Below, piece after piece: positions 1 to 60,936 of a DNA stretch of 64,000 nt (the stretch's first letter is position 1; each line of letters opens with the position of its first letter). The notes under the pieces were generated by a model. The model did no database searches and was not told where the DNA came from. It worked only from the letters and a program-made list of their open reading frames with translations. Source of the DNA: Alphaproteobacteria bacterium CG11_big_fil_rev_8_21_14_0_20_39_49 (GTDB lineage: Bacteria > Pseudomonadota > Alphaproteobacteria > Rickettsiales > UBA6187); assembly GCA_002787635.1 (NCBI GenBank), contig PCXK01000007.1:252676-316675 (forward strand). The letters are read 5' to 3'. Position numbers and translations under genes: made by a program.

Positions 1-3
1 GAT

Positions 4-1479
4 TTGGAGATATCTTTGCAGGAACATATAGGTCAACGCACAGATGCTAACAGAGCGGGCGTATGGCCGGGACTAAGTGAGGAGGATTTTGAGCTTATCG
101 CCAAGCAGGGCTTCGGTGATGGGACAAATGCCTATGCTCATTCTATGGCTTGGTTCAAGGGTCATCTATATGTAGGTACTACCAGAGGCAATTTTGCCCT
201 GATGAGAAAAAGGCTGCCAATCGGTATGGATCCATGGCCTATCGAGTGTCCTAAAGACCCTTTTGACCTTGGGCTTAATTCCGAGATATGGCGTTATAAC
301 CCGAAGAATAAAAGCTGGAAAAAAGTTTATAGGTCTCCTGATATAAAGGGAAGTAACGGAAAAATAATACCTGAGTCTTTAGGGCATCGCGGCATGGTGG
401 TTTTTAAAGACGCATTATATGTTACTACATGGTCGCCTGCGGCGGGTCCGGGACCTTTGATACTAAGAAGTGAAGACGGGATTAATTATGATGTTACATG
501 TGAACCCGGTTTGATGGGGTTGCCTGTGACGGCTATCAGGACTATGGTAGAACATAAAGATAAGCTTTATACCACGCCTTCAGGTTCAAGAGGGGGCAAC
601 CCGAATGTTGCTTCGCATTCAATAGTTTATGAAAGTGCAGACCCTGCCGGCGGTAATTGGGTTCCTGCCAGTGACTTCGGTTTTGGTGATGCGGAAAATA
701 AAACCGTTTTTGAAATGGTTTCTTTTGGTGAATATCTGTATGTAGGTACTTTTAATCTGGAGGGTTTTCAGGTTTGGCGTTCCGATATGGAAGGGGAAAA
801 GCCGTATAAATGGGAAAAAGTAATCGAAAAAGGTGCATATAGAGGTGAAGAAAACCAGATAGCTTGCAGTATGATGCCGTTCAAAGGGGCGTTATATGTG
901 GGCAGTGCAATACAAGGCGGCGGTGTTGATACGCAAAATAAGGTAGGTCCTGCCGCATCGGAATTAATAAGGATAAATACCGATGGCAGTTGGGATTTGA
1001 TAGTGGGGACTGAGCGTGATACACCCGACGGCTACAAAAAACCTTTGTCGGGTTGGGCGGAGGGTTTTGATAACTGGTTTGCAGGCTATTTCTGGCGTAT
1101 GTGCGAGCATGACGGCTGGTTGTATCTTTCAACATTTGACTGGAGTGTAACACTGCCGTATGCAAAGCGTGAGAGTTGGCCGCAGGAATTTTGTAACGTA
1201 ATTAACAATCTGGGTAGTGAATTTATCCTTAGAAATAATGCAGGTTGCGGTGTATATAGAAGTTTCGATGGAGAAAGTTGGGTACGTGTAACAAATAACG
1301 GTATGTCAAACCCTTACAATATAGGAATAAGGACTTTTGCGTCTTCGCCATATGGTTTATTTGTAGGTACGGGGAATTTGTTCGGTCCAAAAGTATGGTC
1401 GTTTAAAGAAGAGCGTTATGTAAATAATCCGCGTGGCGGGTGTGAGGTGTTCCTCGGAAATAAGAAAAAAGCGTTTTGA
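4..1479 (+). CDS. Beta-propeller-like repeat protein of unknown function; the frame is open to the window start, so the 5' end may be truncated
   Basis: About seven recurrences of a blade-like pattern (GHLYVGT, ALYVTT, KLYTTP, YLYVGT, ALYVGS, WLYLST, GLFVGT), each followed by a W/Y-R...W..V strand. No signal peptide or RTX GGxGxD repeats seen. Lies 12 nt upstream of the next gene. Confidence 0.5.
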   Translation: MEISLQEHIGQRTDANRAGVWPGLSEEDFELIAKQGFGDGTNAYAHSMAWFKGHLYVGTTRGNFALMRKRLPIGMDPWPIECPKDPFDLGLNSEIWRYNPKNKSWKKVYRSPDIKGSNGKIIPESLGHRGMVVFKDALYVTTWSPAAGPGPLILRSEDGINYDVTCEPGLMGLPVTAIRTMVEHKDKLYTTPSGSRGGNPNVASHSIVYESADPAGGNWVPASDFGFGDAENKTVFEMVSFGEYLYVGTFNLEGFQVWRSDMEGEKPYKWEKVIEKGAYRGEENQIACSMMPFKGALYVGSAIQGGGVDTQNKVGPAASELIRINTDGSWDLIVGTERDTPDGYKKPLSGWAEGFDNWFAGYFWRMCEHDGWLYLSTFDWSVTLPYAKRESWPQEFCNVINNLGSEFILRNNAGCGVYRSFDGESWVRVTNNGMSNPYNIGIRTFASSPYGLFVGTGNLFGPKVWSFKEERYVNNPRGGCEVFLGNKKKAF

Positions 1480-1491
1480 TAAGAGGTTATA

Positions 1492-4005
1492 ATGAGAAAC
1501 CAATCGGATATACAAAATGAAGAACGTCAGGTTTTCATAATTCCGCCTGTTATCGTAAAAGATATAGGCGGGAAAAAGCTATTACTCCTGCGTGCCAAAG
1601 GTTCGGGTGAATATCATCTGGAACTGGGAGAAGATGTTATATTTAAATTAAAGGAATGGGAATACCATGCTTTGAACGCATTATTTTCATTCGGCGGTGA
1701 TAAATATGACACATTACTTGTAAACACTAATGACAGGTTCGGTCTTAGCCTTACACGGTATGATATTGACGTGTTGCTCGACAGGATAGCAAAAAGAAGG
1801 CTTTTTGATAAAGATAACGCACCTAAACACCCTCTTACCAAGCCTTTTTATGAAGGTACTGCAAAAATAGAAAATATTGCCGGTAAAACGGCAAATAATA
1901 ATTTTACTGCCGGAGTTAGAAAAAAGGTATCGGGGAATTATAATTTAAAGGAAAAGATTACTTCCGTTTATTCACGGATTAAATCTGATGCAAAAGCTTT
2001 CTTTAAAGTAAATGAACAATTTACCGATGAGATTCAAGGTGATGATGACCTAAGTGATATTCAGATAGAACCTGAGGCTGCAAATTTTTCGGTGTTATTT
2101 AATCCGATGAGGTTTTTAAGAAAACATAATTCGCTAATATCAAAGGGGCGTTATCTTCTTTACGCATTGCCGGTATTATTTATTGCTTCACTTGTGATAC
2201 TTTCCAATAACCCGCAAATGATAAGCCACGACCTGCCGAGTGCGATAAGCGGATTCGGACTTATTGCCCACATAGCTTTCGGATTGGTAACCGTCAGTGC
2301 TTTTGTAACATTTGCAACTTCTGCCGTTGCGTTTTCTTATACGGCGACGGTTAAAGCAATATCGGTAGTTTATTTTTTCGGATTTATCCCTCGTTTTATA
2401 CCTGTGATAGAAGATACGGAAAAACTTAGCCGTGAGCAAAAAATGTGGGTTCACGCAACCTCATTGCTTGCACGTTTGGGGTTATTCGGTGTTGCCGTGT
2501 TAATGTGGTATAATTCAAGGCATCTGGGTGGAGTGATATCGGAATTTTTTGCGTTTTTATCATTTACGGCAATATTGTCGTTTTTCGTTGCTGCTTGCCC
2601 GTTCTATAAAAGCAGCGGATACAGGTTCTTAGTGCAGTTACTTAACGAACCTAACCTATGGGGAAAATCGATAACGGCATTATTTAATAAGGTGAACAAA
2701 GATGTTTATTCGCCTTCGGACAATAATGTTTTAGTTGCTTATGCTATTATATGCGTCTTTTTTACGTTTGCCCTTGCTGCTGCTGTGTTTGCAATGGCAT
2801 ATCACTGGTTTGAGATGGAGATAGGTAAAAATGCTCTCTTTATCGTATTTGCTCTGGTTGTGGCGTTTTTCTTAAGGCTGTCTAAGGAAGTAAAGAAAAT
2901 TAACGAAGAATATAAGCGTAACCTGAACTTTGTGCGTTGGCGTGAAGGGGCTTTCCCGACAGTTGTAGAGGAAGTGAAAACGGACGAGGAAAAGCCCGAC
3001 TACAGAAAAAAATACCTGCTTATTGCATCGGTAGTGCTTTTGCTGGTTCCGTATAATTATCAGCCGAGCGGTCAGGTGGTGATTATGCCTATTAACCAAC
3101 AGAAGCTAAGTGCCGATATAGCCGGTATAATAGATGAGGTTTATTACGAAGGCGGAGAGTTTGTAAGGCAGGGGACTGTTATCGCTAAGTTATCAGTGCA
3201 TGATTATGCAGCACAACTGGCTATCTTGAAGGCTAAGCGTGAAGAAAAAATTGCACAGATAAACTTTCTAAAGTCTATGCCTACTCCCGAGCAGGTGGCA
3301 GTGGCGGAAGAAAAGCTTGAGCTTGCCCGTGTGAGTGCAAAATATAGTCAGGCAGAATGTAACCGTCAAAAGCCGTTGCATGATTCGGGCGGGATATCCG
3401 AATCGCAAATGGCCATTATTGAGGAACAATGTGCGATTGACCGTCAAAATATAATGATAGCCGAAGCCAATCTTAATGAAATTGCGGCAGGTGCGTCTTA
3501 TGAGGAGATAGCCGCAGCGGAACTTTCCTTGCTGCCTCTTGAAGCTGAAATAAGGCTTTATGAAGATAAAATAGAGCGTAGTCATTTTAAAATGCCGTTT
3601 GACGGTAAGCTTACAACTTTGGGCTTAAAAGAAAGGAAAGGGCAGTTCCTTGAACTTGGCTCGCCGTTGGCGTCGGCTCATGATGACAAGCAGTTAAAGG
3701 CTATTTTGAAAGTACCTGAAGATGAGCTTTCATATATTAAGGTGGGTTCTGAAGTTGATGTGAAAACTGCCGCTTATCCGGGTAAGACATTCAAAGCCGT
3801 TGTTTCGGTTATTGAGCCTGATGTTGAGGAGCATGAAGGCAAAAGAATGATAAGCATGATAATTTCATTCAACACTAATGAAAAACTGCTAAAATCCGGG
3901 CTTTCAGGTTATGCGAAAGTTGATGGCGGCACTCAAATGTTAGGCGAAGTGTTGCTTACCTCTATAATGAAATTCGTTACAGTTGAACTTTGGGCATGGA
4001 TTTAA
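1492..4005 (+). CDS. Fusion protein: soluble N-domain, polytopic membrane domain (about 8-9 TM segments) and C-terminal HlyD-family membrane-fusion (periplasmic adaptor) domain
   Basis: C-terminal about 300 aa shows the HlyD pattern: a TM anchor (LLIASVVLLLVPY), a barrel-sandwich start (GQVVIMPINQQKLSADIAGIIDEVYYEGGEFVRQGTVIAKL), long coiled-coil heptads, then a second beta region (FKMPFDGKLT...GSEVDVKTAAYPGKTFKAVVSVIEP). Residues about 220-480 are hydrophobic helices. No HExxH, Walker A or Walker B motif. Confidence 0.65.
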   Translation: MRNQSDIQNEERQVFIIPPVIVKDIGGKKLLLLRAKGSGEYHLELGEDVIFKLKEWEYHALNALFSFGGDKYDTLLVNTNDRFGLSLTRYDIDVLLDRIAKRRLFDKDNAPKHPLTKPFYEGTAKIENIAGKTANNNFTAGVRKKVSGNYNLKEKITSVYSRIKSDAKAFFKVNEQFTDEIQGDDDLSDIQIEPEAANFSVLFNPMRFLRKHNSLISKGRYLLYALPVLFIASLVILSNNPQMISHDLPSAISGFGLIAHIAFGLVTVSAFVTFATSAVAFSYTATVKAISVVYFFGFIPRFIPVIEDTEKLSREQKMWVHATSLLARLGLFGVAVLMWYNSRHLGGVISEFFAFLSFTAILSFFVAACPFYKSSGYRFLVQLLNEPNLWGKSITALFNKVNKDVYSPSDNNVLVAYAIICVFFTFALAAAVFAMAYHWFEMEIGKNALFIVFALVVAFFLRLSKEVKKINEEYKRNLNFVRWREGAFPTVVEEVKTDEEKPDYRKKYLLIASVVLLLVPYNYQPSGQVVIMPINQQKLSADIAGIIDEVYYEGGEFVRQGTVIAKLSVHDYAAQLAILKAKREEKIAQINFLKSMPTPEQVAVAEEKLELARVSAKYSQAECNRQKPLHDSGGISESQMAIIEEQCAIDRQNIMIAEANLNEIAAGASYEEIAAAELSLLPLEAEIRLYEDKIERSHFKMPFDGKLTTLGLKERKGQFLELGSPLASAHDDKQLKAILKVPEDELSYIKVGSEVDVKTAAYPGKTFKAVVSVIEPDVEEHEGKRMISMIISFNTNEKLLKSGLSGYAKVDGGTQMLGEVLLTSIMKFVTVELWAWI

Positions 4006-4008
4006 ATA

Positions 4009-5487
4009 ATGAAAAAAATAATCTATATTATAACATTCTTATTTGCAGCTACTCAATATTCTTACGGTGCAAGCCTGAAAGAAGTTCTGGACGTAGCTTT
4101 GGAAAAAGATCCGTTATTAAGTAGTGCCAGATATAAAAGCTATGCGACAAGAGGGGACAAGACAGAGGCTTGCGGAAAGCTGTTCCCGCAATTGTCGGTG
4201 GATAGTGCCTATATTGATTATAATCAGGATAAGGCAGGCTCCGTTTTGGGCAGCGGTACGGCTAATACCAACGGTGTAATTGACGGTAGCCAGACTTCGA
4301 TAGGTCTTACTTTAAACCAGACATTGCTGGATTTGAACAAGCTCGCCGATTGTAAAATGTGGCGTGCGTCGGTAAGCCGTGATGATGCAGGATATGAAAT
4401 AGCGATGGAAGAGCTTATCTATAGGGTTGTGTTGAGCTATTTGAATGTGTTGTCTGCACAAAGCGACCTAAGTTCCGCAAATAGTGAAGTTAGATTGTAT
4501 CGGGAACTTAAAAAAGAAAAAGAACACGCTTTTGAAAGGGGGGTTGTAAGTCAAAGGGAGTTTTTCTCCGTCAGTGCTAAGCATGATAATGCCATTGCAA
4601 ATAAAGAAAAGGCGGCAAATGATTTTATAACCGCAAAGGAAAGGCTAAAGAACCTTTATGATACCGATATACCGAATGAAAAGTTATTAGTTATAAAAGA
4701 CGGTGTGGTATTGAGTCTTGTTGAGGAGGCTTCGCCGGAACACTGGGCAGATGTTGCCGAGCAGTCGAATCTCGGTTTAATAAGAAGTGAGCTTTCCGAA
4801 GAAGTTTATAAGTACGGAATGAAGATGGAGCAGTCAAGGTTCCTGCCTACTGTTGACGCTTTTGCTAACCATACCGATTATGATAGCGATTTTGACAGGA
4901 ACGGCACTCTTGATAACGGTAATTTTTCAACCGAGACAATCGGTGTAAGGCTAAACTGGAAGCTATTTTCAGGCGGAAGTGATTACGGCAGAGTTAGGGC
5001 GGCAAAGAACCGTTACCTGTCGGCACAGCAGGAGGCAGCCGCACAAAGGGATATGGTGCGGATAGATGCAAAGAACTCTTCAAGAGGTTTGATTGTTTTG
5101 AAATCCAAGATAGAAGCTTCAACTACATTATTGGAAGCTGCCCGCCTTGAATTTGAAGCCGTTAAGAAAGGTAGTGAATCAAAGACTAAAACCAAGTCAG
5201 ACCTGTTAGAGGCAACCCTGAATTATCTGGACGCAAGAACGCAGCTCAATAAAGCAAGATATGATTATGTAGTGGGAGTTATGGATTTTTGGAGGTCGAT
5301 AGGTTCGTTATCGGTGCAAAGTGTCGAGCAGATAGATTCCTTATTCATCGCTCCTAAAGATGACATAATAAGAATGTCAGGTGTTTTTGAAAGTAAGACC
5401 GGTTTCAAACAGTCGGGGCAAAATGAAGATATTTTGATGGAGTTGTTGAAATCATTCGGGAACCGGATAAATGATTTTATGATATAG
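4009..5487 (+). CDS. TolC-family outer membrane channel protein
   Basis: Signal peptide (MKKIIYIITFLFAATQYSYG) followed by the typical OEP opening LKEVLDVALEKDPLL. Two-repeat helical architecture, 492 aa. Starts 3 nt after the HlyD-fusion gene. Confidence 0.8.
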   Translation: MKKIIYIITFLFAATQYSYGASLKEVLDVALEKDPLLSSARYKSYATRGDKTEACGKLFPQLSVDSAYIDYNQDKAGSVLGSGTANTNGVIDGSQTSIGLTLNQTLLDLNKLADCKMWRASVSRDDAGYEIAMEELIYRVVLSYLNVLSAQSDLSSANSEVRLYRELKKEKEHAFERGVVSQREFFSVSAKHDNAIANKEKAANDFITAKERLKNLYDTDIPNEKLLVIKDGVVLSLVEEASPEHWADVAEQSNLGLIRSELSEEVYKYGMKMEQSRFLPTVDAFANHTDYDSDFDRNGTLDNGNFSTETIGVRLNWKLFSGGSDYGRVRAAKNRYLSAQQEAAAQRDMVRIDAKNSSRGLIVLKSKIEASTTLLEAARLEFEAVKKGSESKTKTKSDLLEATLNYLDARTQLNKARYDYVVGVMDFWRSIGSLSVQSVEQIDSLFIAPKDDIIRMSGVFESKTGFKQSGQNEDILMELLKSFGNRINDFMI

Positions 5488-5565
5488 GTATTTTTTTATG
5501 TTGAATTTATAGGAGTGTTAGTAAATATAGGTTTTGTACAAATTGCAATGCAATCTTTAATTGTA

Positions 5566-5773
5566 TGTCATGCTGAACTTGTTTCAGCATCTTATTGATA
5601 GTATTTTGACTTTTCCAGAGTTAGAATTGCAATCCCCGACTTGTTCGGGGATCTGAATAAGTTTAAATGAGATCCCCCTATAATTTGCTTCGCAAATTCG
5701 GGGGATGACAGCATTGTTGAAAAGTTAATTTACTATACTCGGAAAAGACCCTGAAACAAGTTCACCGATGACA
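5566..5773. repeat. Family-A palindromic element split by a nested family-B-like element
   Basis: Left arm tgtcatgctgaacttgtttcagcatct (5566-5592) and right arm gaccctgaaacaagttcaccgatgaca (5747-5773) are 154 bp apart, against about 15-17 bp in intact 69-bp copies. The interior holds atccccgacttgttcggggat and cccctataatttgcttcgcaaattcgggggatgaca (family-B arm). Confidence 0.7.
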
Positions 5774-5808
5774 AAAAAATGAGTAAATAAAAAAGAAAGG
5801 ATAAAAAA

Positions 5809-6654
5809 ATGTTTGATGATAAAGTGGGAAATCATATTGTATGTATCGTAATGGATAGTTGCCGTTTCGATTCTTTCCTTGCTGCCAAAACCCCTAATAT
5901 AGATAAGCTGGGAGCGGTTCAAAGAAGATATTCCTATGCCAGTTGGACGGCTCCTTCACATAATACTTTTGCTATGGGGCTATTGCCTCATGCCAGCCCG
6001 ACTAAAATATTAGCATCGGAAGTATATAAGGACGAGTATATTGACTGGGAAGAAAGAACCGGTTTTGAAGGGCTTGATTTCAAGACATTCCTGCCTCATT
6101 TATCTTTGCCGAAAGTTCTGGCAGGCTTAGGTTATGAAACTATCGCAAGGGTATCAATGCCTGTGCTTAACCCTAACACCACCTTTGCCCGTGACTTTGA
6201 TGATTATAAACTTATGCCGGGTCATAATATGTTCAAGGAAATGGTAGAGGAGATTGATTTGCCTCCTGATGAGGATATTATGAATTATTATTTCCTTAAT
6301 CTTGGCGAAACACATTACCCTTACCGACTGGTTGATGAAACCCTTCCGATAATTTCCGGTGTGCATGGTGTTGTTAAAAAAATGAATAATCCGAGTACGG
6401 CTAATCAGCTTCAATGGAGCGAGTTCATTACCGATGCCAAGATGAAGATGTTAAGAGATGCACAAATAAGAAGCATTGAATATGTTGATGAACAAATAGG
6501 CATTTTATTTGATAAGGCAGACAAGGATAGGACGCATTTTATTGTTACGGCAGATCACGGAGATCTGTTCGGTGAAGATGACTTCTTCGGTCATGGTCCT
6601 ATATTCCATGAAAAAGTATTTGAAGTGCCTTTTGTCGAGGGGAAATTGAAATAG
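5809..6654 (+). CDS. Alkaline-phosphatase-superfamily metalloenzyme (nucleotide pyrophosphatase/phosphodiesterase-like or sulfatase-like)
   Basis: N-terminal metal-site-like motif IVCIVMDSCRFDSF, nucleophile-region-like SWTAPSHNTFAMGLLP, and distal metal motif VTADHGDLFGE. No sulfatase C/S-x-P-x-R formylglycine motif. Confidence 0.55.
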   Translation: MFDDKVGNHIVCIVMDSCRFDSFLAAKTPNIDKLGAVQRRYSYASWTAPSHNTFAMGLLPHASPTKILASEVYKDEYIDWEERTGFEGLDFKTFLPHLSLPKVLAGLGYETIARVSMPVLNPNTTFARDFDDYKLMPGHNMFKEMVEEIDLPPDEDIMNYYFLNLGETHYPYRLVDETLPIISGVHGVVKKMNNPSTANQLQWSEFITDAKMKMLRDAQIRSIEYVDEQIGILFDKADKDRTHFIVTADHGDLFGEDDFFGHGPIFHEKVFEVPFVEGKLK

Positions 6655-6664
6655 GTTATTTGCT

Positions 6665-7570
6665 ATGAAGCCACCACTATTTCTGCTTGCACCTCCTAGG
6701 TCATATACTTCGATAATTAACGCTATGATAGGGCAGCACCCCGAAGCTTACGGCTTGCCTGAGCTTAACCTGTTTTTTTATAATACCCTATTGGAGTTAT
6801 GGAACCCCGATAGTAAGGAAGTTCCGTTTGATAAAAAATCAACGCACGGAATGCTAAGAACGGTTGCGGAAATATTTACGGGCGAGCAGACCGACAGGTC
6901 TATCGAATGTGCAGAACACTGGTGTGCGGCAAGGCAGAATGTCCCTGTTGGTGAGGTGTTCAATGATATAAGGAGGCAGCTTGACCCGCTGATACCTGTC
7001 GATAAAAGCCCTTGGTACACACTTGATATTGAGTTTTTGATAAGAATAATAGAATCTTGCCCCGATGCAAAATTTATTCACCTTACCAGACATCCGATAA
7101 AGCAATGTGAGTCTAACCTTAGTTATGTTGATGCTACTATTGTCAAGATAATGAACTCAGTTGACTACACAAAGGATAAGGCAATTCTTGAGCCACAAAT
7201 GATCTGGCATGATATGAATATAAATATCCTGAATTTTCTGGAAAATTATGTTCCTAAAAACCAGTATATAAGAATGCGTGGTGAAGAGGTGATGGAAAAT
7301 ACCGAAGCCGAATTAGTCAAGATGTGCAGGTGGCTGGGGATACGTGACGATGCTGAGGCTATTGATGAGATGATGCACCCTGAAAGGTCGTCTTTTGCTA
7401 ATTTTGGTCCTTTAACAGCATTATTCGGTAATGATACGAATTTCTTAAAAGGTTCTAAGTTTAAAAAACACAAACCTGAATTGCCGGATCTTGATTCAAA
7501 GCTGCCATGGCGTGATGATGAGGGATTAAAGCCGCAGGTAAAAGAATTGGCACGTGAGTTCGGGTATTAG
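6665..7570 (+). CDS. Sulfotransferase family protein (PAPS-dependent)
   Basis: 5'-phosphosulfate-binding-loop-like LLAPPRSYTS near the N-terminus and a 3'-phosphate-binding-like motif HLTRHPIKQCESNLS. About 300 aa. Starts 10 nt after the preceding gene. Confidence 0.7.
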   Translation: MKPPLFLLAPPRSYTSIINAMIGQHPEAYGLPELNLFFYNTLLELWNPDSKEVPFDKKSTHGMLRTVAEIFTGEQTDRSIECAEHWCAARQNVPVGEVFNDIRRQLDPLIPVDKSPWYTLDIEFLIRIIESCPDAKFIHLTRHPIKQCESNLSYVDATIVKIMNSVDYTKDKAILEPQMIWHDMNINILNFLENYVPKNQYIRMRGEEVMENTEAELVKMCRWLGIRDDAEAIDEMMHPERSSFANFGPLTALFGNDTNFLKGSKFKKHKPELPDLDSKLPWRDDEGLKPQVKELAREFGY

Positions 7571-7573
7571 ATT

Positions 7574-8395
7574 ATGAGAAAGCATATAGGCAACATTACT
7601 ATACGTCAGTCGAAAATGGTCGAGAAAGACCCTAAGCGTGAAGAAATGCGTCAGAATCTTGTTAAGGAATACAGGTTGGAGGAGAGTAAATTAAAGGCTA
7701 TAAAAGAGCTAAAATCCATATGTAATAATGAAAATATAACGGAAGTTTTCCTGAATTTATTCGGCAAAGACGGAAAACCGCCAAAGCATATAACCATGAG
7801 GTCGATGATTGAGCAATATGAGTTATTGGACGCAAGAAGGTGGTGGTTTATTACTTTCCGTAAGGAGTTAATGGCTAAATATAAACAGCTTGACCCTGAC
7901 GGCTATAATGAAATTCTTCGCAGAGAAGAAGAACATGAGCGTTTGCGAAAAGAGAAAATGGAGCAGTCTTCTAAAGATTATATTGAAAAAAATGACAGAG
8001 TTCTAAAGCCGATAGTACAAAAAGGAATAAGGGATACTTTATTGAGGCGGCTTAATGTGCAGCTTAAGAAAAGGTCGCTAGGGCTTGATATGAGCAGTGC
8101 GGAGGTTTTGGGTAGTAAAAAAATCGAAAAAACCATGTGCTATCTGTTTACAGAATATATAAGAAATCCAAAATATAAGCTAATTACCGACCCTGTGGAA
8201 AGATGTAAAAAAATCAAAAGGGAAATACAGTGGCTTGATGCATTAATTGTTGAAGTTGAAGAAGGGCTGATAGACCTTAATGAGCTTGTCGAATCAGCCT
8301 ATATATATTTACAGAAAATATCTGCGGTAAATCATTATCCGGGTGAGTGGAGAAAAATAAGGGAAGAAAATCTGCTGCGAATGATAGTATGTTAA
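7574..8395 (+). CDS. Hypothetical K/E/R-rich, predicted helical protein; last gene of the island operon
   Basis: Long ORF starting 3 nt after the sulfotransferase stop. No recognisable motif, TM segment or signal peptide. Confidence 0.4.
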   Translation: MRKHIGNITIRQSKMVEKDPKREEMRQNLVKEYRLEESKLKAIKELKSICNNENITEVFLNLFGKDGKPPKHITMRSMIEQYELLDARRWWFITFRKELMAKYKQLDPDGYNEILRREEEHERLRKEKMEQSSKDYIEKNDRVLKPIVQKGIRDTLLRRLNVQLKKRSLGLDMSSAEVLGSKKIEKTMCYLFTEYIRNPKYKLITDPVERCKKIKREIQWLDALIVEVEEGLIDLNELVESAYIYLQKISAVNHYPGEWRKIREENLLRMIVC

Positions 8396-8608
8396 ATTTA
8401 TATTTATAGTAACGTTATACTATGGATTGACCATATAAGCCTATGCAAAAGGGTGTTTTTATTAGCAACCGGCTTAAAAAGTTCCCTCACCCGCTTGCGG
8501 GGTAGGGGTAGGGAGGGGGCAGTGGTAGTGGTCTTCTTGGTCGTTGGCACTTCAGGCAAAACATCTCATCTTGTTTACACTTATGTTTTCGCTTCTTTTG
8601 TCGTTCTT

Positions 8609-9051
8609 TCAAAAATCTGCGTAACTCCGTTCCGTGAAAAAGATAATAGGTTTGAATAAGTCACGTTCCATTGCCCTTAGTACTCGATTAGCATATTTTT
8701 CTGTCCAGTCACACCTTCTTGCTTCTAGCCATTCACGGGCTACATTTTCAAAACTGTTTTCGTGATTAACTTTGAGGGCTAGTTTATCTTGTTTTTTCTT
8801 TTGTGATGGATTTATTCCAGCTTCAATCTGTTTTTTATTTCGGCTTTTCTTTGTCTGGCTTCTTTTAATGTCATTTGAGGGTATGTACCCAAAGAAACCA
8901 TGCTTTCTTTGCCTAAAAACAAATATCTCAAACGCCAATATTTACTACCGTTCTTGTGGATTAATATATAAAGTCCTTTACCGTCACGTAATTTATAGGA
9001 TTTTTCCTCTATTGGAGCTGTTTTGATTTTCCGGTCTGTAAGTAAAGACAT
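8609..9051 (-). pseudogene. Remnant of a P4-type tyrosine integrase (N-terminal arm-binding/DUF4102-like part only; frameshifted and 3'-truncated)
   Basis: ORF 8812-9051 reads LTDRKIKTAPIEEKSYKLRDGKGLYILIHKNGSKYWRLRYLFLGKESMVSLGTYPQMTLKEARQRKAEIK, a classic P4 integrase N-terminus. Homology continues in another frame (ORF 8609-8938: GINPSQKKKQDKL...SFENVAREWLEARRCDWTEKYANRVLRAMERDLF) and then stops. No catalytic R..HxxR..Y domain remains. Confidence 0.75.
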
Positions 9052-9215
9052 AAACGGGTAAATTATTTAAGTTAAACAATTTGTACCCGTCAATGTACCC
9101 GAAAATATTTAAAATTGGGTCGGATTGCATCGGAGGGTAACAGACAAGTGTTAGCCTAAATTCGTTGTAAAGTCTAGCTTTTTTGGACTTGTTGGGACTG
9201 TAAAAAACGGGGGAT

Positions 9216-9292
9216 TGGCGGGAGTGACGGGATTCGAACCCGCGACCTCTGCCGTGACAGGGCAGCGCTCTAACCAGCTGAGCTACACCCCC
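9216..9292 (-). tRNA. tRNA-Asp (anticodon GTC)
   Basis: The reverse complement gggggtgtagctcagctggttagagcgctgccctgtcacggcagaggtcgcgggttcgaatcccgtcactcccgcca folds as a cloverleaf. Anticodon loop ctGTCac, T-loop ttcgaat, encoded CCA. Confidence 0.92.
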
Positions 9293-9472
9293 GTATAAGA
9301 AATTCTTATGTGGGGAGAGGCAGATATAAATTATCTTTGGCAACAAATCAAGTATTAAAGCATGCTAGATGCATTTTTTTTGTGTTGGTAATGGATTTTG
9401 AACAAAAATGCATATATAGTTCCTCTTTGCGGTAAGGGGTATGACATATTTTATTATATAAATGCAATTATT

Positions 9473-10576
9473 ATGAAAACCATTCATATTTTTATTCATA
9501 CATTAAACCATAGCGGTTTAGTTCATGCTGCCGTTATGATGGCTAACGGTTTGGTTGATAAAGGCTATAAATCTAAATTAGTTGTAATTGGACAGGGGTG
9601 CGAGTCCCCATATAATATTGATGAAAGAATTAACCTTACCTTCTTGAATGTAAAACGAGGGAAGGGGTTGTTGGGTAAAATCAGATATTTATTGCAGTCG
9701 ATAATTGCTTTGCGAAAATATATTAAAGCTCGGAGGGCAGAAAATCTGCTCGTATGGGGAAATGAGTTTACTTCTGTTGCTGTTTTTATCAGGTGTTTGT
9801 TTGGGTTTAATGCAAAAATTATAGGTGTTAATGCGACAAGTATATCTTCACATTTAAAAAGCAATAAAGGATTCTACACAGCGGTAATCCATAAGAAAAT
9901 ATATAAAACCTTTTTAAACCGTGCCGACCATATTATAGCCCAGTCAGCGGGTATGGTTAATGAGTTGGTAGAGGTTTTTACAATAAATAAAGAAAAGCTG
10001 AATGTTGCATATCCTGCGATATCAAAAAAATTTTTCGGTCTTGAAATAACAGGCATTAAAGAAGATGAAATTATTTATGTAGGAAGGTTAATTTACTCAA
10101 AAAACGTTGAAAGGTTATTAACTGCATTTTCCAAAATAAAAGATAAAGATGTTAAATTAAGAATAATAGGCGAGGGGGAGTTGATTGACTCTTTAAAACA
10201 TATGTCCGAAGAACTTGGAATAAAGGATAGGGTTATATTTGAAGGGGCGATGGATAATGTCGTACCATATATGCAAAAAGCTAAGCTGCTTGTTCTGACC
10301 TCACGCTATGAAGGATTCGGAATGGTTGTTGCCGAAGCTATTGCTTGTGGAACTCCTGCCGTTGCGGTTGATTGCCCTGTAGGACCCTCGGAGATAATCA
10401 TAAATGGTGAGAACGGTTATTTAGCGGATTATGAAAATGATGAGGAGCTTGTATCTTTAATTGATAAAGCACTGCAAAAAAAATGGGATTATAAAAATGT
10501 CTCAAAAACTGTAGATAAATTTTCTCCTGAGAATGTTTTACCCGAATATATAAATGCAATCAAAAAGGTTTTTTAA
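9473..10576 (+). CDS. Glycosyltransferase family 4 (GT-B, RfaG-like)
   Basis: N-terminal IHIFIHTLNHSG and C-terminal signature TSRYEGFGMVVAEAIACGTPAVAVDCPVGPSEII. I prefer the ATG at 9473 over the TTG at 9398. Confidence 0.8.
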   Translation: MKTIHIFIHTLNHSGLVHAAVMMANGLVDKGYKSKLVVIGQGCESPYNIDERINLTFLNVKRGKGLLGKIRYLLQSIIALRKYIKARRAENLLVWGNEFTSVAVFIRCLFGFNAKIIGVNATSISSHLKSNKGFYTAVIHKKIYKTFLNRADHIIAQSAGMVNELVEVFTINKEKLNVAYPAISKKFFGLEITGIKEDEIIYVGRLIYSKNVERLLTAFSKIKDKDVKLRIIGEGELIDSLKHMSEELGIKDRVIFEGAMDNVVPYMQKAKLLVLTSRYEGFGMVVAEAIACGTPAVAVDCPVGPSEIIINGENGYLADYENDEELVSLIDKALQKKWDYKNVSKTVDKFSPENVLPEYINAIKKVF

Positions 10577-10579
10577 GTA

Positions 10580-10786
10580 ATGGAAGATGAAATTATCGAA
10601 CTACAGGAAATGGCAGCCCATCAGGCAAGTGACATTGAGAAGTTAAGTGTTGAAATATATATTCAGCAAAAGGAAATAAATATGCTGAAGGAAAAGCTAC
10701 AAAAACTGGAATCTAAAATAAAAGAGCATGGCGGTGATTCGGGGATAAGAAGTGTAGATGAGGAGTCGCCGCCACCGCATTATTAA
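10580..10786 (+). CDS. slyX: SlyX family protein
   Basis: A 68-aa coiled-coil protein with the SlyX-like opening EDEIIELQEMAAHQASDIEKLSVEIYIQQKEINMLKEKL and a C-terminal PPPHY. Confidence 0.7.
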   Translation: MEDEIIELQEMAAHQASDIEKLSVEIYIQQKEINMLKEKLQKLESKIKEHGGDSGIRSVDEESPPPHY

Positions 10787-12782: not shown

Positions 12783-12851
12783 TGTCACCCTGAACTTGTT
12801 TCAGGGTCTTTTTAAATTAAAATGAGATGCTGAAATAAATTCAGCATGACA
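12783..12851. repeat. Family-A 69-bp palindromic element
   Basis: tgtcaccctgaacttgtttcagggtc, then a spacer, then gatgctgaaataaattcagcatgaca. Each arm is itself a hairpin, and the two arms are inverted repeats of each other. Confidence 0.8.
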
Positions 12852-15128: not shown

Positions 15129-15197
15129 TGTCATGCTGAACTTGTTTCAGCATCTCTAACATGAAAAAGTAGATGCTGAAACAAGTTCAGTATGACA
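15129..15197. repeat. Family-A 69-bp palindromic element
   Basis: tgtcatgctgaacttgtttcagcatctctaacatgaaaaagtagatgctgaaacaagttcagtatgaca. Confidence 0.8.
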
Positions 15198-15261: not shown

Positions 15262-18200
15262 ATGACCCAAGCACAAAAATTAGCATCTAATCCTGCACAT
15301 TCTGTTTATGTGGGGGCATCGGCAGGTTCGGGTAAAACGAAGGTTCTAACCGACAGGGTGCTTAGAATCCTGTTAGGAGGTGTTCCGCCCGGCAAAATAA
15401 TGTGCCTTACATTCACTAATGCCGCAGCGGCAGAGATGGCAAATCGTATCAATAAAAACCTGATGAAGTGGGTTGCGGTATCAAAAGCCGAGCTGATAAA
15501 GGATATTACGGACTTAACGGGAGTTGTGCCTGATGAAAAAACACTAACCCTTGCAAGAAGATTATTCGTTTCTGTTCTCGATACTCCGGACGGATTGAAA
15601 ATTCAGACTATTCACTCATTTTGTCAGAACCTTATGAGAAGATTTCCGCTTGAAGCCGGCATAGCTCCGCATTTTCAGGTGATTGACGAGCAAACTTCAT
15701 TAGAGCTTTTAAAAGAATCACGCATGAGGCTTTTGTCAAAAAAAGATGAGCATAGTGACGTTGTAAGCAAGGCAATCAATAATATTGCATGGAGGGTCGA
15801 TGAGGGCGGCTTTGCACAAATATTGCATGACATAACCAACGAGCGTGAAAAAATAGAATATTTGTTTAGCCGTTATAGCATGGTTGAGATAGTTGAAAGG
15901 ATTTGCAGCGTTTTGAATGTAAAGGCGGAAGAAACCGAGAAATCGGTAATATTTGATAATTATAAAGACTATGATATTGAAAAAATCAAGGACTATGCAG
16001 GTATTTTATCGGCAGGCGGGGCAAATGATATCAAGGCGGGAAGTTGTATAAAATCTTTTATAGATGTCTTTGAAAAACAAGGTGATATTGAAAGTGCGTT
16101 CAACAGTTATGTGCTTGCATTTTTAACGGCCGACTTTAAACCGAGAAAAAAACTTGTTAATAATAATATCGCTAAAAAATATCCTGATTGCGAACAGTGG
16201 ATGCAAAAAGAGCAATCTGACGTTTTAACATTGCTGGATAAGGTAAGGTCTGTTCGTATAGCACAATTGACTATAGATTTATTCCATGTAAGTGAGGCTA
16301 TTTTAATTCTGTATAAAAAAGCTAAAAACTCGAAAGCTTTTTTAGATTACAATGACTTGATAATAGCCAGTAATAATTTACTTAATAAAAGCGGTATAGC
16401 ACCTTGGATTTTATATAAATTAGACGGCGGAATCGACCATCTTCTGGTTGATGAGGCACAAGATACAAGCCCGCAGCAATGGAAGGTGATAGAGGCATTG
16501 TGCGGAGAGTTTTTTGTAGGGCAGGGAGCATCTGAAAAAAACCGTACCGTTTTTATAGTCGGAGATGAAAAACAATCTATTTTCAGCTTTCAAGGAGCTG
16601 ATCCTAAAGTGTTCAATCAAATGCAGTCGGTATTTTCCAAGAGGGCAAAAGATGCACAAAAAGGCTGGCAAACCGTGGCTTTGGATAGGTCTTTCCGTTC
16701 TACTTCTGCCGTTTTGAAATGCGTTGATGCTATATTTTCAAAAGAGAATATCAGAAAATCAGTATCGTTCCTGCCCGAATATATTCCCCATGTCGCCCAT
16801 AGGGAAAGTCATGCGGGGCTAGTTGAGCTTTGGTCTTTATTGGAAAAAGAGGAAAAGGACAGCCTTGAGCCTTGGACGTTGCCTATTAAGAGGATTGAGG
16901 CAACTAATATAAAAAGAAAATTAGCCGCAAAAATAGCCGCAACGGTTAAGGAATGGATAGACGGGGGAAGGAAGATAGAGGCTACCGGTAAGACGGTAAG
17001 TCCGGGTGACATAATGATATTGGTGCGTCGCCGTGATGCGTTGGTTGATTATCTGGTGAGCGAGTTAAAGGCAAATGATGTTGCGGTTGCAGGTGTGGAC
17101 AGAATGATATTGACCGAGCATATTGCGGTAATGGATTTAATGGCATTGGGTAACTTCCTGTTGCTGCCGGAAGATGACCTGACTTTAGCCTCGGTTTTAA
17201 AAAGCCCCCTTATAGGTATGAGCGAAGAAGAGTTGTTTGAAATTGCTTATAAAAGAGGAAAGAGGTCTTTATGGTCTGCCCTAAAGGAAAAGGAAGGAGC
17301 TGTTTTTCAGGCAGCTTATGAGTATCTTTTGGGCTTATTGAATAAGACGGATTTTGTTTCGCCGTTTGAGATATATTCACATATTCTGGAGGCAAAAAGC
17401 GGAAGAAAAAAACTTGCCTCAAGGCTTGGTGAGGAAGTGAACGACCCGATTGATGAGTTCCTGTCACTGGCTCTTGCCTATGAGAGCAGCCACCCCCCTG
17501 CGTTACAAGGTTTTTTAAGCTGGCTTTCAATGGGCAAAACCGAAGTTAAGCGTGACCTTGAGCAGGGCAATGATGAGGTTCGTATTATGACCGTGCATGG
17601 CTCAAAGGGATTGCAGGCTCCGATTGTTTTCTTGCCCGATACAACATCATTGCCGAAGAACAAAAGCGGCAATATATTCTGGACTGAAAATAACGGTGAG
17701 CCGATAATGTTATGGAGCGGCTTGAGTGAGAACTTAAATGAGTATTGTAATGGTTTAAAAGATAGTGCTAAAAGTCAGACTAATGACGAGTATTTAAGGT
17801 TGCTGTATGTAGCACTTACCAGAGCCGAAGATGAACTTTATATAGCAGGCTATCAGGATAATAAAAAAATAACAGATGAGTGTTGGTATAATGTGATAAA
17901 AAACGGCATGGAAGATATCGCGGAGAATGTTGACGGCAAGCTGGTGCTTAGGTCTGAGCAGTTATCTGAAGTTGTTAATGATAATGAAGTTCAAAGGGTT
18001 GAGGAGATGGCGGTTTTATTGCCTGAGTTTGTCGGGCAAAAAGTGCCTCAGGAACCAATGCCTTCTGTTCCTCTTACACCTTCTCAGCTTGAAGGTGATG
18101 TGCCTGTCGTTAACTCTCCTTTAGTCAAGGGGGCGATACTTAAAGGAAAACTAATTCACAAATTACTACAATATCTGCCCGAACTGCCCGTTGAAAAAAG

Positions 18201-41729: not shown

Positions 41730-41798
41730 TGTCATGCTGAATTTATTTCAGCATCTCATTTTATTTAAAAAAGACCCTGAAACAAGTTCAGGGTGACA
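41730..41798. repeat. Family-A 69-bp palindromic element
   Basis: tgtcatgctgaatttatttcagcatctcattttatttaaaaaagaccctgaaacaagttcagggtgaca. Confidence 0.8.
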
Positions 41799-45711: not shown

Positions 45712-45799
45712 GCCTGCGTGGCGGAATCGGTAGACGCTGCAGACTTAAAATCTGTTGTCCTTTTTGGACGTGCCGGTTCAAGTCCGGCCGCGGGCACCA
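45712..45799 (+). tRNA. tRNA-Leu (anticodon TAA), long variable arm
   Basis: gcctgcgtggcggaatcggtagacgctgcagacTTAAaatctgt...ggttcaagtccggccgcgggcacca. Acceptor pairs gcctgcg/cgcgggc. Anticodon loop ctTAAaa. Encoded CCA. Confidence 0.9.
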
Positions 45800-47558: not shown

Positions 47559-47593
47559 AATAATGTTATCTATGTGTATTAAAGTAAAGTATT

Positions 47594-47951
47594 AGATGGT
47601 CTGTAAGCCGGGTTCTGTAATTGACGGCTATTCATCTGGGACATTTATCACTAAATGCCTCAAGCAACCTACCCGAATATCCGGTGTGGAAAACACCTGT
47701 AAAAAATACGTGATATTCCTATTTGGTCTTGCTCCCGGCGGGGTTTACCTTTGCCGTATGATGTTGCCATATACGCGGTGCGCTCTTACCGCACCTTTTC
47801 ACCCTTACCCTAATGTTTAATAAAAAGCATTAAGGCGGTTATTTTCTGTGGCACTTTCCCTAGAGTCACCTCCGGTGGGCGTTACCCACCACCGTTTTTC
47901 CATGGAGCCCGGACTTTCCTCTGTGTAAACACAGCAGCCATCCGACCATCT
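47594..47951 (-). ncRNA. rnpB: RNase P RNA (bacterial type A)
   Basis: The minus strand contains the universal P4 5' strand GAGGAAAGTCCGGGCTCC (complement of 47909-47926 region) and the 3' P4 strand ACAGAACCCGGCTTA (complement of about 47602-47616). P1 pairs agatggtc/gaccatct at the two ends. Confidence 0.88.
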
Positions 47952-48012
47952 AAGGCAAGCAATATGTACCATTTAGTTAATATTTTCAAGAGGGAAATAA
48001 ATTATAGTATAA

Positions 48013-51036: not shown

Positions 51037-51047
51037 TTTTCAGACCT

Positions 51048-53024: not shown

Positions 53025-53093
53025 TGTCATGCTGAATTTATTTCAGCATCTCCGGCACAGCAAAGAAGATACCGAAACAAGTCCGGTATGACA
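53025..53093. repeat. Family-A 69-bp palindromic element (divergent right arm)
   Basis: tgtcatgctgaatttatttcagcatctccggcacagcaaagaagataccgaaacaagtccggtatgaca. Confidence 0.75.
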
Positions 53094-56028: not shown

Positions 56029-56097
56029 TGTCATGCTGAATTTATTTCAGCATCTCATTTTACTTTAACAAGACCCTGAAACAAGTTCAGGGTGACA
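56029..56097. repeat. Family-A 69-bp palindromic element
   Basis: tgtcatgctgaatttatttcagcatctcattttactttaacaagaccctgaaacaagttcagggtgaca. Confidence 0.8.
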
Positions 56098-59385: not shown

Positions 59386-59432
59386 TAGGATATGATTTTG
59401 TAAAGTAAATTTGAATTTAATTACTTACATAT

Positions 59433-59478
59433 GTCATTCCACGAATTTTGTTAGTAGAACAAAATTATAGTGGAATCC
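59433..59478. repeat. Family-B-like single arm
   Basis: gtcattccacgaattttgttagtagaacaaaattatagtggaatcc. Confidence 0.5.
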
Positions 59479-59529
59479 ATATTTAAAAAAGTTAGGAAAA
59501 CTTTAAAATTAATTGCGGAGAAAAATAAT

Positions 59530-60936
59530 ATGACTTTATGGAACAGCGAAGATGTACAAACCGCAACGTGCGGTGTGTCGGTTAATAGCTGGGAAGCCGG
59601 CGGTGTTTCAATCGATAGCAGAAAAATAGAATCGGGCGACCTGTTTATAGCACTGGTAGGCGATAATAATGACGGTCATAAATATGTTAAATCCGCACTT
59701 GCAAAAGGAGCTGTGGCGGCGGTTGTAAATTATGTACCCGATGATATGGACGACAGAGATAATCTCTTAATAGTCGATAACACTTTTGACGCATTGTGGG
59801 ATATGGCAAGATATAGCCGTGACAGAATGAAAGGCAAAGTTATAATGGTAACAGGCAGTGTGGGTAAAACCACTACCAAGGAAATGCTGGCACATGTGTT
59901 GGAACATCAGGGAAAAGTTCATGCTACTATAGGCAATTTAAACAATCATTATGGCTTGCCGCTAACCCTTGCGAGAATGCCTGCCGATACCGATTATGCG
60001 TTATTAGAGGTGGGAATGAGTAGTGCAGGTGAAATTTCACCGCTTTCTGTTTTGACTCAACCCGACAGTGTTATTATTACCAATGTAGAGCCTGTGCATC
60101 TTGAGTTTTTTGATTCGATAGAGGGCATAGCAAAAGCTAAGGCTGAGGTTTTCGACGGATTAAAAGAAGGTGGTTGTGCAGTGTTGAATTATGATAATCT
60201 TAATTTCCCTTACTTACAAAAAATCGCCGATGAGAAAAATATAAAAAATATTAAGACTTTCGGAAAAAGTAGTAATGCTGCTTTCAGATTGGATAAATAT
60301 GAAGAAACGGTTGATAATGCAAAGATTATAGCCTCATTAGACGGTAGTGAAGTTCAGTATGAGCTAGGTATTTTTGGAGAGCATCACGCTTTAAATTCAT
60401 TGGGTGTTCTGGCATTAGTAAAATCCGTAGGTGCAAATTTAGAGCGTGCCGCAGATGCATTTGCAGATTTTGAAGCAAAAGCGGGCAGGGGAAAAAGAAT
60501 GTGTATTGAGGGAAAGTTCGGCAATATTACCCTTATCGACGATACGTATAACGCAAGTCCTGCCGCAGTTTCAGCTTCCTTGAAAGTTCTGGGGGATATT
60601 AAGGCTAAGTATAAAAACCGTATCGTTGCCGTTTTGGGTGATATGTTCGAGCTAGGTGATGATGCGATAAAAATGCATGAGGAGCTATCGACGAAAATTA
60701 TAGAAAATAATGTAGATGTTGTATTTACGGCTGGAAAATTAACAAAATCACTTTATAACCGTTTGCCTGATGAAATAAAAGGAAATCATAAAGATGATTC
60801 GTCCGAAATAGCAATAAGCGTTTATAACTGCTTAAAAGACGGCGATGTTGTTTTGGTGAAAGGCTCAAGAGGCATGAAGATGGAGAATGTGGTTAATTAC
60901 ATATGTAATGATAAAGGTATGAAAAATGCTATATAA
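59530..60936 (+). CDS. murF: UDP-N-acetylmuramoyl-tripeptide--D-alanyl-D-alanine ligase
   Basis: [38 protein letters not shown] and GDMFELG. I prefer the ATG at 59530 because the upstream part of the ORF overlaps a repeat. Confidence 0.92.

Follow-up and report, generated by a model that had tools for sequence, protein, structure and literature searches.

A PfaA-like polyketide synthase cluster linking a curacin-type sulfotransferase to an adaptor–TolC export module, with no pump gene in the loci examined

Gene content of the locus and of related clusters

The window analysed here is a stretch of 64,000 nucleotides from Alphaproteobacteria bacterium CG11_big_fil_rev_8_21_14_0_20_39_49 (contig PCXK01000007.1, positions 252,676 to 316,675). 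It opens with six intact genes on the plus strand, encoding a beta-propeller protein, an 837-aa fusion of a multi-pass membrane domain with a HlyD-type periplasmic adaptor, a TolC-family outer-membrane channel, a 281-aa enzyme of the alkaline phosphatase superfamily, a sulfotransferase dependent on 3'-phosphoadenosine-5'-phosphosulfate (PAPS) and a charged helical protein of 273 aa (Table 1). A sequence-only reading of this DNA had taken the block for a horizontally acquired six-gene operon in which a sulfotransferase serves an export module without a visible energising transporter, possibly after the manner of the Xanthomonas rax system. The listing of open reading frames (ORFs) bore out the six genes and the gaps of 12, 3, 321, 10 and 3 nt between them, and profile hidden Markov model and structure-model searches upheld the HlyD, TolC, alkaline phosphatase superfamily, sulfotransferase and propeller calls. 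What changed is the setting, a PfaA-like polyketide/fatty-acid synthase cluster that is conserved across phyla and to which the six genes contribute the distal half, with tailoring and export functions. Thus, the link between adaptor, TolC and sulfotransferase stood, as did the lack of an energiser in cis, and the notions of a free-standing operon and of a Rax-like peptide system did not.

The DNA in front of the window was accessible through a metagenomic contig of 947 kb (L001), which carries the exact 837-aa protein and matches the window over 14,005 nt with 0 mismatches. In L001, the 10 kb before the adaptor gene begin with the end of a polyketide synthase (PKS) containing acyltransferase (AT), acyl carrier protein (ACP), ketoreductase (KR) and dehydratase (DH) domains. 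A second PKS of 1,446 aa with ketosynthase (KS), AT and DH domains comes next; after it lie genes for a carrier protein of 102 aa, a Phosphodiest enzyme of 524 aa and an alpha/beta hydrolase, and then the propeller gene. The small protein qualifies as a carrier protein by the motif DIGFDSSD and an invariant Ser41. A 63%-identical relative could be read back for about 18 kb to relA/spoT, and its cluster opens with three PKS proteins of the composition ER-KS-AT (ER, enoyl reductase), ACP-KR-DH and KS-AT-DH. The PfaA model TIGR02813 was the best match for all three (5e-204, 2e-128 and 2e-155). In locus L012 the N-terminus of the first PKS bears an NMO/FabK domain, a feature of PfaD-type enoyl reductases, while the third, KS-AT-DH, is unlike PfaC. 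Because PfaA-like PKS, carrier protein, phosphodiesterase and hydrolase genes lie upstream, the block is not a six-gene operon; it is a portion of a cluster comprising 13 to 18 genes.

Scanning a genome collection with the adaptor returned one locus and scanning metagenomes another one; the wider context was obtained from look-ups of exact proteins. Gene neighbours and their order are unchanged around adaptor homologues that are 67%, 63% and 42% identical. More distant or rearranged clusters with the same components are found in L011, L013, L018 (Neptuniibacter) and L019 (Tritonibacter). In the metagenome-assembled genome (MAG) behind L011, whose adaptor is 40% identical, propeller, adaptor and TolC share one strand, and the 281-aa enzyme, the sulfotransferase, the 273-aa-type protein and an esterase form an inverted block. 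The Tritonibacter multivorans cluster (around WP_058290004-WP_058290010) runs from two PKS genes through carrier protein, phosphodiesterase, hydrolase, propeller and adaptor to a 283-aa enzyme, the sulfotransferase, a 255-aa protein and a phosphopantetheinyl transferase (PPTase). That of Neptuniibacter sp. QD34_54 (CP180546.1, 680-702 kb) consists of a PKS, a PKS-PPTase, hydrolase, propeller, adaptor, sulfotransferase, a 144-aa protein, an esterase and TolC. Altogether, at least ten lineages combine adaptor, TolC and sulfotransferase, whether in this order or rearranged, with loci of 37–67% GC and including cultured bacteria, which answers the question of neighbourhood conservation raised by the sequence-only reading. 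Distant members of the adaptor family were sampled as well. The neighbours of P0017 include a PfaA-type PKS, a 273-aa alkaline phosphatase family enzyme, a sulfotransferase, TolC and a protein of 144 aa, as well as a PAPS_reduct gene and one resembling CysQ. P0154 adjoins a PfaA-type PKS and glycosyltransferases, P0045 an esterase and an unannotated gene for 1,857 aa, and P0120 an esterase and sugar-modification genes. The source records carry generic labels ("HlyD family secretion protein", "MdtN", "sulfatase-like hydrolase/transferase", "hypothetical"). Note that in the P0002 lineage (L007/L008, 5768-7341) the 524-aa phosphodiesterase is split into ORFs of 175 and 314 aa, which may reflect a pseudogene or an assembly frameshift.

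The propeller and the 281-aa enzyme are the two most conserved genes of the cluster, and the propeller remains 69–91% identical between clusters whose adaptors share 29–68% identity. Its gene probably starts with the TTG at position 4, since relatives measure 490–492 aa, and the window therefore contains all of it. The AlphaFold model is all-beta (predicted local distance difference test, pLDDT, 89; predicted TM-score, pTM, 0.90), and the best Foldseek matches are Kelch-type propellers with query TM-scores of at most 0.45. Searches assigned the protein to no Pfam or NCBIfam family and found no signal peptide, as for a cytoplasmic protein. A profile search collected 1,961 proteins, the best 120 of which (P0155-P0274) are 62–90% identical and all unnamed. 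Homologues occur in Alpha- and Gammaproteobacteria, Myxococcota, Nitrospirota, Planctomycetota (Ca. Scalindua japonica), Rickettsiaceae MAGs and others. In P0225 the propeller is fused to the alpha/beta hydrolase of the cluster.

The 281-aa enzyme gave Sulfatase, Metalloenzyme and Phosphodiest matches, and its best NCBIfam hit, the STM4013 family, lies below the cut-off. Residues D16, T47, D249, H250 and H262 are invariant in six lineages, the metal ligands are intact, and Thr47 occupies the position of the sulfatase nucleophile (SWTAPSH), so that the enzyme would resemble the superfamily members with a threonine nucleophile. Its gene is reported to lie always directly 5' of the sulfotransferase gene. 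The 273-aa protein had been described as a charged orphan, a label that does not hold: in every lineage examined, the protein directly after the sulfotransferase is a counterpart conserved over the first ~125 residues, with 249–259 aa in L005, L009, L011 and L019 and 144 aa in L018 and L013. R26, I49, P69, P70 and W91 are invariant in the alignment, and no export signal was detected in this protein, nor in the propeller.

Table 1 Features of the window and coordinates in related loci. Positions refer to the window unless a locus is named; identities are to the window orthologue (for the propeller, between clusters).
Feature	Position	Strand	Description	Identity
Beta-propeller gene, 491 aa	4..1479	+	start = TTG at 4	69–91%
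837-aa fusion	1492..4005	+	PqqD/RRE-like (tentative), linker, predicted site-2-protease-like domain, anchor, adaptor (membrane fusion protein), WxW helix	29–68%
N-terminal cytoplasmic domain, residues 11-125	1522..1866	+	four strands then three helices, pLDDT ~83-94
Six-helix membrane domain, residues 199-487	2086..2952	+	M50/site-2 protease homology
Periplasmic adaptor proper, residues 526-816	3067..3939	+	lipoyl domain, long alpha-hairpin, beta-barrel
C-terminal helix ending WAWI	3940..4002	+	family-specific; WSW-I/L-P in relatives; both tryptophans 63/63
TolC-family outer-membrane channel, 492 aa	4009..5487	+	OEP, TIGR01844, Sec signal peptide	22–65%
REP/MITE-like palindromic insertion	5574..5764		inside 321-nt gap 5488-5808
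Alkaline phosphatase superfamily enzyme, 281 aa	5809..6654	+	Sulfatase, Metalloenzyme, Phosphodiest	61–94%
Stand-alone PAPS-dependent sulfotransferase, 301 aa, CurM/OLS polyketide type	6665..7570	+	Sulfotransfer_3	53–86%
Conserved charged helical protein, 273 aa	7574..8395	+	alignment with relatives	26–71%
Phosphodiesterase				57–89%
Integrase stump	8609..9051	-	Arm-DNA-binding domain and frameshifted piece
tRNA-Asp (GTC)	9216..9292	-	likely integration site; ARAGORN; Rfam tRNA 72.6 bits
REP/MITE-like palindrome copies	12791-12843, 15137-15189, 41738-41790, 53033-53052, 56037-56089
GT4 glycosyltransferase (392 aa) and SlyX	9398-10786		right beyond tRNA-Asp; probably core genome resumes
AddA/UvrD-type helicase-nuclease	15262-18624		1,120 aa
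Secretin and 822-aa PilM/PilN-containing protein	21815-26995		probably pilus or type-2-like secretion block
tRNA-Leu(taa)	45712-45799
Bacterial RNase P RNA class A	47588-47953	-	329.8 bits
CHASE2-adenylate/guanylate cyclase adjoining TPR protein	48823-52913	-	TPR protein with Slam-type C-terminal domain (surface lipoprotein assembly modifier)
dcw genes PBP3, MurE, MurF, MraY, MurD	56184-63384
Large proteins after the 273-aa-type protein	L005 16649-21343; L007 16664-21425; L009 10572-12764		no ABC exporter nearby
CysD and CysN-CysC fusion	L011 5591-8455	-	PAPS supply beside cluster
PAPS_reduct gene and CysQ-like inositol-phosphatase-family gene	L013 1-1634		PAPS-related genes beside cluster

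Downstream, the window departs from its relatives. In L005 and L007 the 273-aa-type protein is followed by a protein of 696–723 aa, an esterase resembling polyhydroxybutyrate (PHB) depolymerases with a lipoprotein signal, and a 565-aa protein; further on, a carboxylesterase and a PPTase are encoded on the opposite strand. L009 encodes a 730-aa unannotated protein and two esterases in this position. Tblastn detected no homologues of the relatives' repeats-in-toxin (RTX) proteins, the esterase or the carboxylesterase in the window. The place of the relatives' cluster tail is taken here by a decayed integrase, which, like the tRNA-Asp gene beyond it, is present as the sequence-only reading had it. 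An Arm-DNA-binding domain (PF13356, 3.1e-21) is left at 8812-9051 and a frameshifted piece at 8609-8938 covers positions 52–142 of the 413 of PRK09692; the catalytic domain is missing. The tail was probably lost by integration and deletion at tRNA-Asp. All ten visible cluster genes of the window genome are intact. Horizontal transfer, likewise proposed from the sequence, is plausible in view of the tRNA, the integrase stump and a propeller with 62–90% identity across phyla, but neither the window nor the 8.5 kb upstream of it contained a second copy of the tRNA 3' end, as expected of an attachment (att) site.

The claim that the 321-nt gap between the TolC gene and the gene for the 281-aa enzyme is filled with repeats was confirmed. 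Its palindrome arms (5574-5593 and 5745-5764) are 90% complementary, lie 151 nt apart and enclose nested inverted repeats, and the insertion is absent from relatives, in which the same junction measures only ~7 nt or overlaps. The arm TGAACTTGTTTCAGCATCTT occurs in 11 copies in the window against 0.01 expected. This repeat is a genome-wide palindrome resembling repetitive extragenic palindromic (REP) sequences or miniature inverted-repeat transposable elements (MITEs), composed of TGAACTTGTTTCAGCATCTT and its complement ~13 nt away and located between genes. A scan of positions 1-9500 for promoters and terminators yielded counts that were not above those of shuffled controls.

The adaptor fusion, its channel and the lack of a pump gene nearby

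The 837-aa protein matches HlyD_D23 (2.8e-18) and HlyD_3 (4.4e-14) in Pfam. Its structure model (pLDDT 84.4) consists of an N-terminal domain, a disordered linker, a membrane domain, an anchor helix, the adaptor and a C-terminal helix. The fusion of the adaptor to its own multi-pass membrane domain, already noted from the sequence, was recovered: six hydrophobic helices lie within residues 221–467, and the adaptor anchor follows near 507–525. A profile search of 1.84 billion representatives retrieved 661 clusters at E<1e-30, and in more than 150 family matches the aligned part runs from about position 200 to the end, i.e., it comprises membrane domain and adaptor.

The N-terminal domain may tentatively be regarded as similar to PqqD and to the recognition elements (RREs) of peptides that are made by the ribosome and modified after translation (RiPPs). 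PqqD was the commonest Pfam match among the N-terminal domains of 20 family members (3 of 20, best E 0.011), and a profile search of the PDB produced the lasso-peptide RRE TfuB1 at E 0.17. Longer relatives, e.g., P0032, possess the domain in two or three copies.

The membrane domain matches NF041824, the daptide intramembrane metalloprotease, at 1e-14 over residues 201-473, and the membrane domains of relatives also match YydH/LiaK. As judged from the aligned sequences, it is a site-2-protease-like pseudoprotease, predicted to be catalytically dead and to keep the scaffold, because all 63 family members lack HExxH and the window protein has lost the Asp ligand. None of the 63 aligned sequences has HExxH anywhere, and the window protein reads H260-IAFG. 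NPxxxxDG, which supplies the third zinc ligand, has degenerated to CPFYKSSG; across the family, NxxPxxxxDG retains its Asp in 25, its Pro in 63 and its Gly in 60 of the 63 members. What persists is structural: in the model a re-entrant beta-hairpin with the motif GFIPRF is kept at residues 286-307, P300 and P370 never vary, and 59/63 sequences have R301.

The periplasmic part is an ordinary adaptor. Foldseek, run with the full-length model, listed matches that cover only this part, with EmrA (4tko, 7.9e-17) first and EmrAB-TolC and MacA following, down to 1e-14. At the hairpin tip the motif RxxxLxxxxxxS is formed by R625, L629 and S636, which are kept in 60, 52 and 56 of the 63 sequences, respectively. 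This RLS motif is the TolC-docking motif of adaptors. The adjacent TolC homologue fits OEP (4.1e-47, two repeats) and TIGR01844 (1.7e-52), and its N-terminus, MKKIIYIITFLFAATQYSYGA, is a Sec signal peptide.

To our knowledge, reviews state that TolC-dependent export requires an engine of the ATP-binding cassette (ABC), resistance-nodulation-division (RND) or major facilitator superfamily (MFS) type. The sequence-only reading had found no such partner and allowed for one just upstream of position 1. There is none: neither the 10 kb upstream of the adaptor gene in the same genome (L001) nor, in the relative with 63% identity, the ~18 kb that reach back to relA contain an ABC, RND or MFS gene, and in nine further lineages none lies inside the clusters. 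In full agreement with the earlier observation, no ORF of the entire window combines Walker A with an ABC signature. An energiser elsewhere in the window was likewise discarded as a candidate, the large ORFs checked being housekeeping genes. When the same scan was applied to 19 loci along with the window, the sole candidate was an MsbA-like ABC gene in L011, 6 kb away on the opposite strand and beyond the housekeeping gene lepA. Since scanning 19 loci and the window gave only this gene beyond lepA, the absence of a pump in cis is a property of the adaptor family and not an accident of the window.

Sulfation chemistry and a proposed route of export

The sulfotransferase (Sulfotransfer_3 in Pfam, 8.9e-21) has only two significant relatives among solved structures, the sulfotransferase (ST) domains of CurM (4gbm, 5.5e-18) and of olefin synthase (OLS; 4gox, 2.3e-16); the next match has an E value of 0.12, and no protein-tyrosine sulfotransferase appears among the PDB matches. 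Aligned with CurM ST, the protein exhibits PPRSYTS for the PRSxT/S loop that binds PAPS, the Glu of PELxL, the lysine of VDKSP and RHP. CurM and OLS ST sulfate beta-hydroxyacyl-ACP, after which a thioesterase can release a terminal alkene. The alpha/beta hydrolase encoded upstream matches the CurM thioesterase (TE; 3qit) with 8.3e-9 over 223 residues. Because the sulfotransferase matches CurM ST and OLS ST, the sulfation chemistry is placed, by homology, on a polyketide chain and would not act on a peptide as in Rax. PAPS-related genes stand beside two of the clusters: CysD and a CysN-CysC fusion in L011, a PAPS_reduct gene and a CysQ-like gene in L013. Such supply genes next to the cluster fit a heavy demand for sulfation.

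These findings lead us to propose that the cluster makes a polyketide lipid that is sulfated or sulfate-activated and exports it through a dedicated adaptor–TolC duct without a cluster-encoded pump, a reading to which we assign a probability of about 0.6. The PfaA-like synthase would build a long hydroxy or unsaturated acyl chain on the carrier protein. The CurM/OLS-type sulfotransferase, with PAPS, would sulfate a hydroxyl group of the carrier-bound or just-released intermediate, the enzyme's homology being plain and its substrate presumed. Hydrolase, propeller and the two alkaline phosphatase family enzymes may release and process the chain, and the sulfate may either be kept, giving a sulfolipid, or act as a leaving group as in the curacin and olefin synthases. 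Architecture and model suggest that TolC docks via the RLS hairpin tip on a presumed hexamer of the 837-aa adaptor, of which the RRE-like domain and the dead protease module might form a receiving or gating platform at the inner membrane. Energy might be supplied by a pump whose gene lies elsewhere or by coupling to biosynthesis. The PHB-depolymerase-like esterases of relatives, with their lipoprotein or Sec signals, fit the processing of an exported ester.

Several points weigh against this proposal. Both the product and its transport are predicted from the gene content. The His of the CurM PELHL motif is an Asn in the window sulfotransferase, and CurM TE is not the best match of the hydrolase, as other hydrolases score higher over shorter stretches. 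RRE-like and protease-derived domains are peptide-handling modules and sit oddly with a lipid substrate. TolC is missing from the clusters of L019, L015 and L017; a housekeeping TolC may serve the duct, or the adaptor may do something else. A PPTase, seen in relatives, was not found in the window, and neither it nor the cluster tail turned up within 55 kb downstream; the window copy could thus be decaying. Finally, a pump could be encoded elsewhere in the genome.

The last point leads to the alternative that survives best, namely a canonical tripartite pump in which a housekeeping ABC, MFS or RND transporter acts in trans and the dead-protease domain is just an enlarged anchor or a regulator. 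This explanation is possible, although we consider it rather unlikely. It draws on the ordinary nature of the periplasmic part, whose closest relatives EmrA and MacA have an MFS and an ABC partner, respectively, on the clusters without their own TolC, which imply that components can be supplied in trans, and on the MsbA-like gene of L011. That gene, however, lies on the other strand past lepA, and ten lineages have no pump despite very tight operons. Adaptors are almost always encoded beside their pump. Moreover, a conserved N-terminal module of ~500 residues in hundreds of families (661 matches at E<1e-30) exceeds what an anchor would need. At the other extreme, the pseudoprotease and the RRE-like receptor might replace the pump altogether and hand the nascent sulfated lipid into the duct straight from a cytoplasmic assembly line of PKS, carrier protein, propeller, hydrolase and sulfotransferase, driven by biosynthesis (PAPS/thioester); this would constitute a fourth kind of TolC-coupled conduit, and we advance it tentatively, as a rather unlikely extension of the proposed lipid export.

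A type-1-like route for the RTX proteins and esterases of relatives, with the polyketide genes as mere neighbours or as a means to lipidate those proteins, is very unlikely. It finds a basis in the proteins of 696–730 aa directly after the 273-aa-type protein in L005, L007 and L009 and the 565-aa protein in L005 and L007. The L005 pair (696 and 565 aa) are RTX proteins (HemolysinCabind, 6.7e-112 and 3.9e-85) with no N-terminal signals and with acidic-hydrophobic C-termini (DFIW, DFIF) typical of type 1 substrates. Neither the window nor the clusters of Tritonibacter, Neptuniibacter, L013 and L017, all four of which retain the adaptor, contain the RTX genes, though, and no HlyB-type ABC protein is present. 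We know of no precedent for the ATPase-free secretion of unfolded proteins of 600–700 aa. As they are confined to one clade and absent from other clusters, we treat the RTX proteins as accessory and not as the primary substrate.

Least probable, and to our minds barely tenable, is a Rax- or RiPP-like system in which the sulfotransferase modifies a ribosomally made peptide or protein, perhaps the propeller or the 273-aa protein, that the RRE-like domain binds and adaptor and TolC export: the weak PqqD/RRE resemblance, a membrane domain whose ancestry lies with daptide- and YydH/LiaK-type leader peptidases of RiPP pathways, and a conserved small charged protein always after the sulfotransferase speak for it, but they are set against a sulfotransferase closest to CurM/OLS with no tyrosine sulfotransferase among its PDB matches, a protease motif dead in 63/63, two proposed substrates devoid of export signals, the lack of a peptidase-ABC exporter and a PfaA-like PKS as the invariant partner of the adaptor family. 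As the sequence-only reading had also noted, there is no small precursor gene either; no conserved precursor-sized ORF fits the tight gene junctions of the relatives.

Whatever the energy source, in the loci examined the adaptor family keeps recurring next to PfaA-like lipid synthases and is never accompanied by a pump; either TolC is fed in a way that is new, or many biosynthetic clusters rely on one hidden pump that they share. The cluster also marks a widely transferred, uncharacterised polyketide lipid pathway with curacin-type sulfation in trans. Its propeller of ~490 aa, 62–91% identical across phyla and without family assignment, is a strong candidate for new enzymology. Should the proposal of a pump-less conduit be true, such a system has spread over many phyla together with this ultra-conserved protein.

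Comparison with known systems

Among the papers searched in full text, none joins PKS, sulfotransferase, HlyD and TolC, and none describes the system. The secondary-lipid survey by Shulse and Allen does not mention sulfotransferase, HlyD or TolC. The searchable text of reviews on tripartite pumps, for one of them its first 300,000 characters, contains no fusion with an M50 or site-2 protease, the "M50" strings in it being irrelevant. Legionella legionellol, a TolC-dependent PKS surfactant, was considered as an equivalent and rejected, as cluster and chemistry differ and a sulfotransferase is lacking.

The nearest chemical counterparts are CurM of curacin A biosynthesis and the Synechococcus olefin synthase. 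They provide the closest solved sulfotransferases, with PAPS loop, Glu and Lys aligned, and share the type I PKS context and a hydrolase that resembles CurM TE. In both, ACP, ST and TE form a tridomain of the last PKS module, whereas here they are separate genes, several genes apart. CurM and OLS come without the alkaline phosphatase family enzyme and the charged helical protein, with both of which the window-type sulfotransferase is always paired, and they have the PELHL His where the window protein has Asn. The Xanthomonas rax system (RaxST, RaxA, RaxB, RaxC, RaxX) likewise links a sulfotransferase to an adaptor and a TolC-type channel; it differs in its peptidase-ABC RaxB and its RaxX precursor, neither of which has a counterpart here, and the present cluster is PKS-based and has a sulfotransferase of PKS type. 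The mycobacterial sulfolipid-1 locus (Pks2, PapA1/2, Stf0, MmpL8) employs an RND-type MmpL exporter and a sulfotransferase that acts on trehalose. It combines PKS, sulfotransferase and dedicated lipid exporter as well, but homology is limited to generic PKS domains, the Pks2 model matching KS-AT only.

With regard to the 837-aa protein, EmrAB-TolC and MacAB-TolC share the periplasmic fold, the RLS motif and a neighbouring TolC. They differ in that no EmrB- or MacB-type transporter is encoded here and in the ~520 extra N-terminal residues with six additional helices and the family-specific WxW helix of the fusion. The M50 proteases of RiPP clusters (daptide MpaP-type, NF041824; YydH/LiaK, NF058609) correspond to the membrane domain over 273 residues and have in common with it the beta-hairpin and a P...G(Y) remnant of NPxxxxDG; the loss of HExxH, the fusion to an adaptor and the location in PKS instead of RiPP clusters set the window protein apart.

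A further parallel is DevBCA-HgdD of Anabaena, where a lipid made by a PfaA/HglE-like synthase, the heterocyst glycolipid, is exported by an adaptor and a TolC-family channel with the ABC pump DevCA. Members of our adaptor family match the DevB adaptor model at 1e-6 to 1e-13, below the cut-off, and a PfaA/HglE-like synthase lipid, an adaptor and a TolC-family channel would be common to both. In the present cluster, however, no pump is encoded, the adaptor carries RRE-like and dead-protease domains, and sulfation appears instead of glycosylation. Set beside these systems, the cluster unites a conduit of the tripartite type with a Pfa-type biosynthetic cluster, each with a component for which we found no precedent, and there is a fair chance that its mechanism is new.

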